Notes: generated by a model not told the origin, from the letters alone. A stretch of 62,373 nt of DNA from an uncultured Candidatus Saccharibacteria bacterium (GCA_964621595.1 CAZUPO010000003.1:7150-69522); one strand, 5' to 3'; shown: positions 10,474 to 11,400, counted from the stretch's first letter. Numbers and translations are program-made.

Positions 10474-10727
10474 AAAAATTTTTATTTATGCAAATCAGAG
10501 AGTGTTTTAATTTTTTATGATCACGACCGTAATCATTTACTCTCGATACATTAAGTATGTCATGTGTAAAATTGCATACAATACTTTTTATAAAAAAATG
10601 TGTGGATAACTTTTTTTATTTTTTAGTTAAATAAAAAATAAAAAAATAAAAATGCGTACCACATAAGCAGAGAGTGCATTACCAGCATGTGATAGAAAAA
10701 TAAAAAAAATTCTCTGCAATAGAGAAA

Positions 10728-10745
10728 GGCCGCGCGAGCGCGGCC
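10728..10745 (-). terminator. GC-rich hairpin terminator of GC-island A
   Basis: GGCCGCG-cgag-CGCGGCC 17 nt after the stop at 10762, followed on the minus strand by TTTCTCT and, ~15 nt further on, TTTTTTTTATTTTT. Confidence 0.7.
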
Positions 10746-10761
10746 TCCTTCGGACGTCCTT

Positions 10762-11319
10762 TCATCGTCCGATGTAACTTGCTGCCGAGAGGTACTCGGC
10801 AGGCCTGGCGTAGGGCACCGTGTAGGCAATGGACCCGAGCCAGACATTAGGGATCTCCTTGGAACGGGGTTCGTTCCAGATGAGACACGGGATGGACCAC
10901 TCGACACCTTCCGCTCCGTAGATGATGCAACCATCGAAGCAGACCCTGTACTGCCGGTTGTAGATCGGAGCAGTGCCATACCGCTTCATGACAGCGCGAG
11001 CGAACTCCACGCGGTGCTCCAAGCAGACGAGGAGTGCGCGTACTCCAAGGAGTGCGTATCCAGGATCCATCATGCGGATCATCCGCACCATGTCGCTTGC
11101 CATGATCATGGTCTTCCCTGGCCCCCTGGAGAAGCCGTATAGGAAGGTGATGCTGTTCTGGTTTTCGAATTCGAGTTCAGAGACCAGATTGGTCCTCGGA
11201 TCTTCCTCCCGAAACCCGGCGAACGACTCCCTCTGGCTCGGAGGAGTATCCGGATACTGCGCCCTTAGGCGCTTCCACACGGAATCATCGGATTCCGTGA
11301 GGTTGATTGCGTATGGCAT
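10762..11319 (-). CDS. Orphan 185-aa protein encoded in GC-rich island A
   Basis: ATG at 11319 is preceded by AGGAGGTG (2-nt gap). G/C-biased third positions in an otherwise AT-rich genome. No family recognised. The ORF-track start at 11379 lies in the promoter, so it is rejected. Confidence 0.6.
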   Translation of the reverse strand: MPYAINLTESDDSVWKRLRAQYPDTPPSQRESFAGFREEDPRTNLVSELEFENQNSITFLYGFSRGPGKTMIMASDMVRMIRMMDPGYALLGVRALLVCLEHRVEFARAVMKRYGTAPIYNRQYRVCFDGCIIYGAEGVEWSIPCLIWNEPRSKEIPNVWLGSIAYTVPYARPAEYLSAASYIGR

Positions 11320-11350
11320 GGCACCTCCTGAAGAGAACTGTGAAGGTTTC

Positions 11351-11379
11351 ATTATACCATAAATATTTGACTGCGTCAA
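11351..11379 (-). promoter_or_regulatory. Near-consensus sigma70-type promoter with palindrome over the -35
   Basis: Minus strand TTGACG - 17 nt - TATAAT. The -35 is embedded in TTTGAC-gca-GTCAAA. Confidence 0.6.
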
Positions 11380-11400
11380 ACTAATGAGTCGCGTACAGGA

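Follow-up and report, generated by a model that had tools for sequence, protein, structure and literature searches.

Architecture of the orfX block

The window, meaning the whole stretch of 62,373 nt analysed here, belongs by its SET homologues to the Patescibacteria, class Paceibacteria (Nomurabacteria-like). Between a SET-domain gene and a conserved non-coding block, it carries a short GC-rich segment with a single gene on the minus strand, herein called orfX. The features of this segment and of its two flanks are collected in Table 1.

Table 1. Features of the orfX segment and its flanks (positions in the window)
Feature	Position	Strand	Remarks
SET-domain gene	11401..11961	-	Conserved upstream flank of the slot; PF00856, E 4e-25
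Segment swapped around orfX	10617..11422	-	blastn of L127 (closest species found) versus window: no nucleotide similarity
Palindrome TTTGAC-gca-GTCAAA	11366..11380	.	Overlaps the -35 of orfX; present as a single copy in the window; not statistically notable
Predicted sigma-70-type promoter of orfX	11351..11379	-	TTGACG, 17 nt, TGgTATAAT; 11/12 positions matched
Shine-Dalgarno sequence (SD) AGGAGGTG of orfX	11322..11329	-	Strong; ATG (11319) 2 nt downstream
orfX	10762..11319	-	185 aa, 558 nt; ATG 11319, TGA 10764-10762
GC hairpin GGCCGCG-ctcg-CGCGGCC	10728..10745	-	7-bp stem, 4-nt loop; T-rich tail TTTCTCTATT directly after
Conserved downstream flank of the slot	10343..10616	-	Non-coding block, micro-ORF and terminator; alignment A2; 92% to the closest species found

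The -35 hexamer of the promoter (11379-11374) begins 21 nt beyond the SET stop codon (11403-11401), where the preliminary description of this DNA had given about 20 nt. A spacer of 17 nt leads to the -10 hexamer TATAAT (11356-11351) with its TG just 5', and the distance from the promoter is 21 nt to the SD and 31 nt to the ATG. Within the scanned 11 kb, this is the top match. The whole window contains three sites that match 11 of 12 positions, versus 1.8 expected by chance; hence, the meaning of the promoter lies in its placement ahead of the ORF and not in its rarity.

The palindrome that overlaps the -35 has no second exact copy in the 62 kb, and sites with up to two mismatches number two versus 5.2 expected. 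The chance probability of a palindrome with 6-bp arms in a promoter-sized region is about 0.1 by our own estimate. Control by a repressor bound to this palindrome, as the preliminary description had proposed, finds no support in these numbers, and the palindrome was rejected as an operator.

The GC hairpin downstream of orfX is predicted by RNA folding, and the 111-nt 3' region that encloses it folds with a z of -4.0; it is not among the sites listed by a consensus terminator scan. It lies approximately where relatives have the terminator of SET (alignment A2). It is the predicted terminator of orfX and, since nothing lies between SET and orfX, also of read-through from SET. Because no terminator separates the two genes, such read-through can transcribe orfX as well.

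With promoter, SD, and intrinsic terminator in the correct order and spacing, orfX is a predicted autonomous sigma-70 unit, which is probably transcribed constitutively from its own near-consensus promoter. Promoter, palindrome, SD, 558-nt ORF, and hairpin all lie on the minus strand where the preliminary description had placed them, and the complete set of expression signals that it had claimed, from promoter and SD to ORF and GC hairpin terminator, is present.

Coding sequence and composition

The orfX protein has a calculated mass of 21.2 kDa and a pI of 6.6, and no membrane or hydrophobic segment is predicted. The product would be a soluble, cytoplasmic-type protein of 21 kDa that may stem from a GC-rich gene pool.

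The GC content of the orfX block is 56.4% compared with 41.7% for the window, with a peak 500-nt window at +4.9 SD and abrupt steps on both borders. Its tetranucleotide distance reaches a z of 4.0 (rank 10 of 618 windows), and the windows ranked above it are, as far as listed, all within the repeat-protein gene 160-3096. The codon positions of orfX have a GC1/2/3 of 0.54/0.46/0.72, which is even across both halves of the ORF; the GC3 of 29 host ORFs is 0.36±0.03 and does not exceed 0.43. A codon-adaptation-like index gives 0.51 for orfX versus 0.715±0.023 for host genes. The amino-acid make-up is GC-shifted as well, since R/(R+K) is 0.81 compared with 0.40±0.13 (maximum 0.65) in host proteins and the G+A+R+P fraction is 0.31 compared with a host-protein maximum of 0.28. 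The composition of orfX is foreign at the nucleotide, codon, and amino-acid level, and the block, described beforehand as visibly GC-rich, is an outlier in sliding-window GC, GC3, and tetranucleotide usage alike. A donor was not deduced from the preferred codons (CTC, AGG, ATC, TAC, and GAT), since 185 codons make such a deduction too weak.

Only the orfX frame is open from end to end. By our estimate, random sequence of 57% GC would hold an open frame of 185 codons with a probability of about 0.001 per frame. The pattern GC3 >> GC1 > GC2 points to a gene that evolved as a coding sequence at approximately 57 to 60% GC. The mRNA shows a folding excess of z -2.3/-3.8, the first value being relative to synonymous-codon shuffles, and host genes lie at about +0.5. 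The block has no match in Rfam, neither at the gathering threshold nor at E values up to 10. With this result, the strong codon periodicity, and a folding excess that is moderate, its identity as a structured non-coding RNA was rejected.

A second GC island lies at 39229-39470 on the minus strand (54% GC in 500-nt windows, 3.9 SD), just upstream of a same-strand gene of 170 aa. It contains an ORF of 54 aa (ATG 39390, stop 39229) with a GC3 of about 0.9 by hand count, preceded by TATAAT and GGAGG. No Rfam match was obtained for it, and none of 25 relatives is GC-rich upstream of the orthologous gene; hence, it represents another lineage-specific GC-rich mini-cassette. The repeat-protein gene 160-3096 on the plus strand, the top tetranucleotide outlier of the window, encodes 978 aa composed largely of short Ser/Thr/Asn-rich repeats (...TVATSTVTNSTV...) and is probably a surface protein. 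A tRNA-like gene is located at 61990-62065 (minus strand) between the 5S and 23S rRNA genes; it scores 56 bits with the Rfam tRNA model and is reported by ARAGORN as 'tRNA-???' with no anticodon assigned.

Occurrence of orfX in other samples and databases

Abrupt GC steps on both borders would also be expected from an assembly chimera, in which contaminating high-GC DNA has been joined to a low-GC contig. The orfX protein is encoded on eight further contigs from at least six other samples, each time in the context valS–SET–orfX–(glmS); this match was made with a gene call of 196 aa for the same ORF. An identical protein is encoded by seven to eight of these contigs, with a DNA identity of 99.4 to 100%, and the low-coverage contig L001 (ERZ4216102; 99.7% identical) differs at codons 86 and 99. 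Both junctions of the block thereby recur at 99.4 to 100% identity in at least six other samples and with several assemblers. The orfX block is not an assembly artefact, a chimeric join at its borders is excluded, and the probability left to a contaminant origin is close to nil. Since all copies are about 100% identical, they have no evolutionary depth and purifying selection on orfX cannot be shown.

No homologue of orfX was found among approximately 15 billion proteins. Only its own cluster of three members was retrieved from 5.8 billion clusters by a word-indexed search and from 1.84 billion representatives by an exhaustive HMMER search, and no usable match came from Pfam, PHROGs, PADLOC, or PDB sequences. 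The preliminary description had likewise recognised no family for the protein. Searches of viral, metagenome, and genome contigs and tblastn against phages and plasmids returned only the copies of the species itself; the donor suggested earlier, a high-GC host or partner organism or a phage, thus finds no counterpart among the hosts, phages, and plasmids searched. Likewise, six-frame tblastx of the block against the loci of relatives gave nothing significant, on which grounds a frameshifted or antisense derivative of a relative's cassette was rejected. At the borders of the block, there are only short AT-rich chance repeats, with neither flanking direct or inverted repeats nor an integrase. 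The single-sequence AlphaFold2 model of the protein is poor (pLDDT 37).

An orphan with a poor model and with no diverged copies that could provide evidence of selection might also be a nonfunctional relic or a recent ORF on inserted GC-rich DNA. Herein, the expression signals would have arisen by chance or been taken over from the gene that was displaced, as the location of the hairpin at the place of the relatives' SET terminator might suggest. Such a relic would, however, hardly show a significant codon-position GC pattern that is uniform over the whole ORF. Furthermore, the ORF is intact, its protein is identical in seven of the eight further contigs (two residues differ in L001), an open frame of this length is rare in random sequence of this GC content, and a strong SD stands 2 nt ahead of the ATG. 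We therefore consider a relic improbable.

The slot between SET and the conserved block

The arrangement valS<- ->SET -> variable gap -> (glmS) -> secA recurs in 26 relatives, and a relative of orfX is absent from all 26. In alignment A2, which contains the window and six relatives with a minimal gap, the extra DNA lies between the SET stop codon and the conserved non-coding block. The slot is thus bounded by the 3' end of SET and by this highly conserved block upstream of a Lys-rich micro-ORF.

Within the block lie the micro-ORF, a terminator, a TGATCA-type repeat, and the motif ATTTGCAT, which occurs alone and as one arm of an inverted repeat, ATGCAAAT-n7-ATTTGCAT, whose copy in the window is degenerate. 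A DnaA-box-like sequence TTATCCACA at 10601-10609 is invariant and is the sole exact copy in the 62 kb. Positions 10343-10616 are 92% identical to the closest species found, compared with 73 to 78% for valS, SET, glmS, and secA. The block could be a regulatory region or be related to an origin. Its micro-ORF MAAKKKAAKKKTAKKKSAKRA (10408-10473, minus strand) encodes 21 Lys/Ala-rich residues and is conserved in most relatives, with a length of about 25 to 45 residues counted from Met. A strong bidirectional terminator follows it at 10344-10377.

The closest species found is represented by L127 to L129 and was recognised by a SET protein that is 87% identical. In a blastn comparison of L127 with the window, similarity extends across valS and SET to 11423 (78%) and returns at 10616 (92%). 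Between these shared flanks, the window holds approximately 800 nt with orfX and L127 approximately 700 nt with a different gene, p157. This gene encodes 157 aa, starts 76 nt past SET, and has a host-like GC content of 0.41. It is homologous to the orphan target gene of a diversity-generating retroelement (DGR) in the relative L018 (tblastn E 2e-9, 32% over 111 aa) and matches the DGR-target family with an hhalign P of 0.002; no further relatives of p157 were found among genome contigs. In two close species, L132 and L134, with SET proteins 78 to 80% identical, the slot is empty. A 113-aa 'gene' called in L134 spans the conserved non-coding block and was discarded as spurious.

With p157 in the closest species found and genes of the same family in other relatives, the ancestral occupant of the slot was probably a gene of the variable-protein family. 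In the species of the window, the cassette in the slot has thus been replaced relative to L127, as opposed to a simple insertion. The acquisition claimed earlier stands in this form, as a lineage-specific insertion or replacement: the gene is not conserved at the syntenic position, being absent from the 26 relatives and exchanged for p157 in L127.

The contig L130 (JGI 3300045378), which matches positions 11546-12116 of the window, is 100% identical to it across valS and on into SET, of which the first two-thirds agree. Inside SET, the contig diverges and then runs into a ClpB-like gene; it is either from a rearranged strain or a metagenome chimera.

DGR cassettes in the slot of relatives

GC islands are concentrated in the slot, with five in 37.6 kb of slot sequence versus five in 273 kb outside. 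DGR variable-protein genes are present in three of these slot islands (L018, L022, and L024), and the slot of L035 also holds a DGR. The spans beside SET are 6585-9860 in L024, 4840-7342 in L035, 6922-8009 in L022, and 6886-7612 in L018. The DGR of L024 is complete. Its target spans 7065-7622; the variable repeat, of 126 nt, is found at 7493 and the template repeat at 7994, and the element further includes a reverse transcriptase of 325 aa and an Avd-like ORF. Variable and template repeat differ at 17 positions, 14 of which are template adenines. The DGR of L035 is complete as well, L022 retains the target and a remnant of the reverse transcriptase, and L018 represents an orphan target. In L019 and L020, DGR pieces are located on the opposite side of SET.

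The alignment of the DGR-target family shows a conserved body and a hypervariable C terminus. Its AlphaFold model reaches a pLDDT of 90, and Foldseek matches are weak and mostly to C-type-lectin domains. More members of the family occur in unrelated housekeeping contexts with no reverse transcriptase close by. Common to them are a conserved 5' leader and, on the 3' side, an element with a hairpin after it. The leader is found at 6812-6924 in L022, at 6935-7067 in L024, and at about 4870-5003 in L135 to L138. It combines the hairpin GTCATAGCGA...TCGCTATGACC with a stem, GGTTCCTCCTCGG...AGAGG, that contains an anti-SD-like CCUCC, has compensatory changes in 3 of 12 predicted pairs, and is not in Rfam. 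It may be a cis-regulatory RNA, for which it is a candidate. The 3' element CTTGGACCCTTTGGACTTAGTCCTTG and its hairpin are conserved after the stop codon of the targets.

Other small GC-rich ORFs (60-67%) with SD and terminator lie in the same neighbourhood at 7499-8150 in L026 and at 7300-7470 in L030. They are unrelated to orfX and also to the DGR targets, the one exception being a short and weak tblastx match (E 5e-4) of the L018 island to that of L026. The ORF in L026 is broken by a scaffold gap of 100 N with duplicated ends.

In nine of nine cases, the GC content of the target lies 8 to 20 points above that of the host locus (GC 0.39-0.58, GC3 up to 0.77), whereas two DGR reverse transcriptases are host-like (0.38 and 0.23). 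Because the targets of relatives are GC-rich and their own reverse transcriptases are not, a GC island in the slot is no automatic proof of a high-GC donor. Of the high-GC source that the preliminary description had put forward, the foreign composition hence stands, and the deduction of a high-GC donor is weakened, as an excess of GC is typical of the class of cassettes found in this slot.

A further reading would be that, in low-GC Paceibacteria, DGR variable-protein genes intrinsically have and maintain a high GC content and that orfX is a fossil target; as a whole, we think this rather doubtful. The GC content would herein be kept up by a process tied to retrohoming or recombination, for example repair with a GC bias or selection for structure in the target DNA or RNA.

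orfX compared with the DGR-target family

The surroundings of orfX raise the question of whether it is itself an extremely diverged member of the Paceibacteria variable-protein family, that is, a frozen orphan target. The template repeat and the reverse transcriptase would then have been lost, leaving a static C-type-lectin-like binding protein. It occupies the same slot as p157, on the same strand and with a similar spacing to SET (81 nt versus 76 nt), and its 185 aa fall within the 157 to 218 aa of the family. At the nucleotide level, it is almost the same as the targets of L018, L022, and L024 (GC 0.56-0.58, GC1/2/3 about 0.55/0.43/0.72), also in its ACGT composition of 0.22/0.29/0.28/0.21. 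The folding excess of its mRNA is likewise close to those of the L018 (z -1.9/-3.7) and L024 (-1.7/-2.9) targets, and a GC hairpin with a 4-nt loop follows its stop codon. At the amino-acid and codon level, however, orfX departs from the family: its R/(R+K) of 0.81 compares with 0.46 to 0.55, and it prefers AGG and GAT where the family prefers CGC and GAC.

Profile comparisons are marginal, with empirical p values of 0.002 to 0.06 for orfX against DGR-target profiles. The best case is hhalign against profile A5, which includes p157 (P 0.006): 113 columns are colinear, FDG, CL.W, and WLG are in register, and the score was matched by 1 of 600 shuffles and by 1 of 70 native 185-aa chunks. Other profiles gave P values of 0.058 (A1), 0.74 (A3), and 0.027 (60 sequences, with 17 columns only), the hhalign score became no better as family diversity rose, and the six-frame comparison shows no hidden similarity.

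The machinery of a DGR is missing around orfX. An A-tolerant ungapped scan and a sensitive blastn of the island found no template repeat in the 62-kb window. A tblastn search with the reverse transcriptase of L024, which has matches in L024, L035, L020, and L022, found none in the window or in the sister loci. The cassette leader GTCATAGCGA...TCGCTATGACC...GGTTCCTCCTCGG and the 3' element CTTGGACCCTTTGGACTTAGTCCTTG have blastn matches in L018, L022, L024, and L135 to L138, and none in the window, so both elements of the family are missing at orfX. Orphans of the family that have no reverse transcriptase are common. A hypervariable C terminus was not found between populations, as the eight further contigs show no C-terminal polymorphism and the changes in L001 (codons 86 and 99) are not C-terminal. 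orfX is not being diversified by a DGR, and we consider its descent from a former target less likely than not.

Likeness to known systems

Bona fide DGR targets with a C-type-lectin-like variable region, as known from Mtd of Bordetella phage, TvpA of Treponema, and CPR/DPANN genomes, are present at this locus in relatives. orfX resembles them in position, orientation, size, GC profile, the downstream GC-rich inverted repeat, and the marginal colinear profile match. It differs by the lack of a template repeat, a reverse transcriptase, a hypervariable C terminus, and significant homology, and the cassette furthermore by the lack of the conserved 5' leader and 3' element and by an unlike amino-acid composition.

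Compared with lineage-specific orphan genes in islets or replacement hotspots, orfX is alike in its atypical GC content and codon usage, its restriction to one species, the conserved flanks, and the alternative cargo in relatives. The locus differs from these in having no integrase, tRNA, transposase, or repeat borders, and as a hotspot in that its cargo is mainly one retroelement-linked gene family. With integron-type or promoter-bearing mobile cassettes, it shares the short single-ORF unit and the recurrent site, but it lacks both an attC-like site and an integrase and carries its own promoter.

Origin of orfX and its meaning

Taken on balance, it is somewhat more probable than otherwise that orfX, a gene of foreign composition and confined to one species, came by exchange into a slot that is prone to recombination and is a hotspot of DGR targets. 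A DGR variable-protein gene would formerly have occupied the slot and would have been swapped out in the species of the window, presumably by homologous recombination in the conserved flanks. The role of the orfX product may be analogous to that of the displaced binding protein. Against this exchange speaks that no donor and no mobility signature at the borders (repeats or integrase) were found and that the copies of orfX, all about 100% identical, have no evolutionary depth. Since orfX matches the profile of the DGR-target family marginally, it may furthermore be a very divergent relative instead of an unrelated replacement.

In itself, orfX is one more orphan gene of the candidate phyla, and the result is modest, yet the gene is real and species-specific, and the replacement is cleanly displayed. 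If it is a fossil variable protein, it would show the extent of drift in such genes after loss of the retroelement. More useful is the context: DGR variable-protein cassettes have a hotspot in Paceibacteria, the conserved interval valS–SET–(slot)–secA, and the cassettes are consistently far GC-richer than their hosts and their own reverse transcriptases. Should the high GC content be an intrinsic property of these genes, scanning for GC islands would serve to detect DGR targets that are orphan or cryptic.
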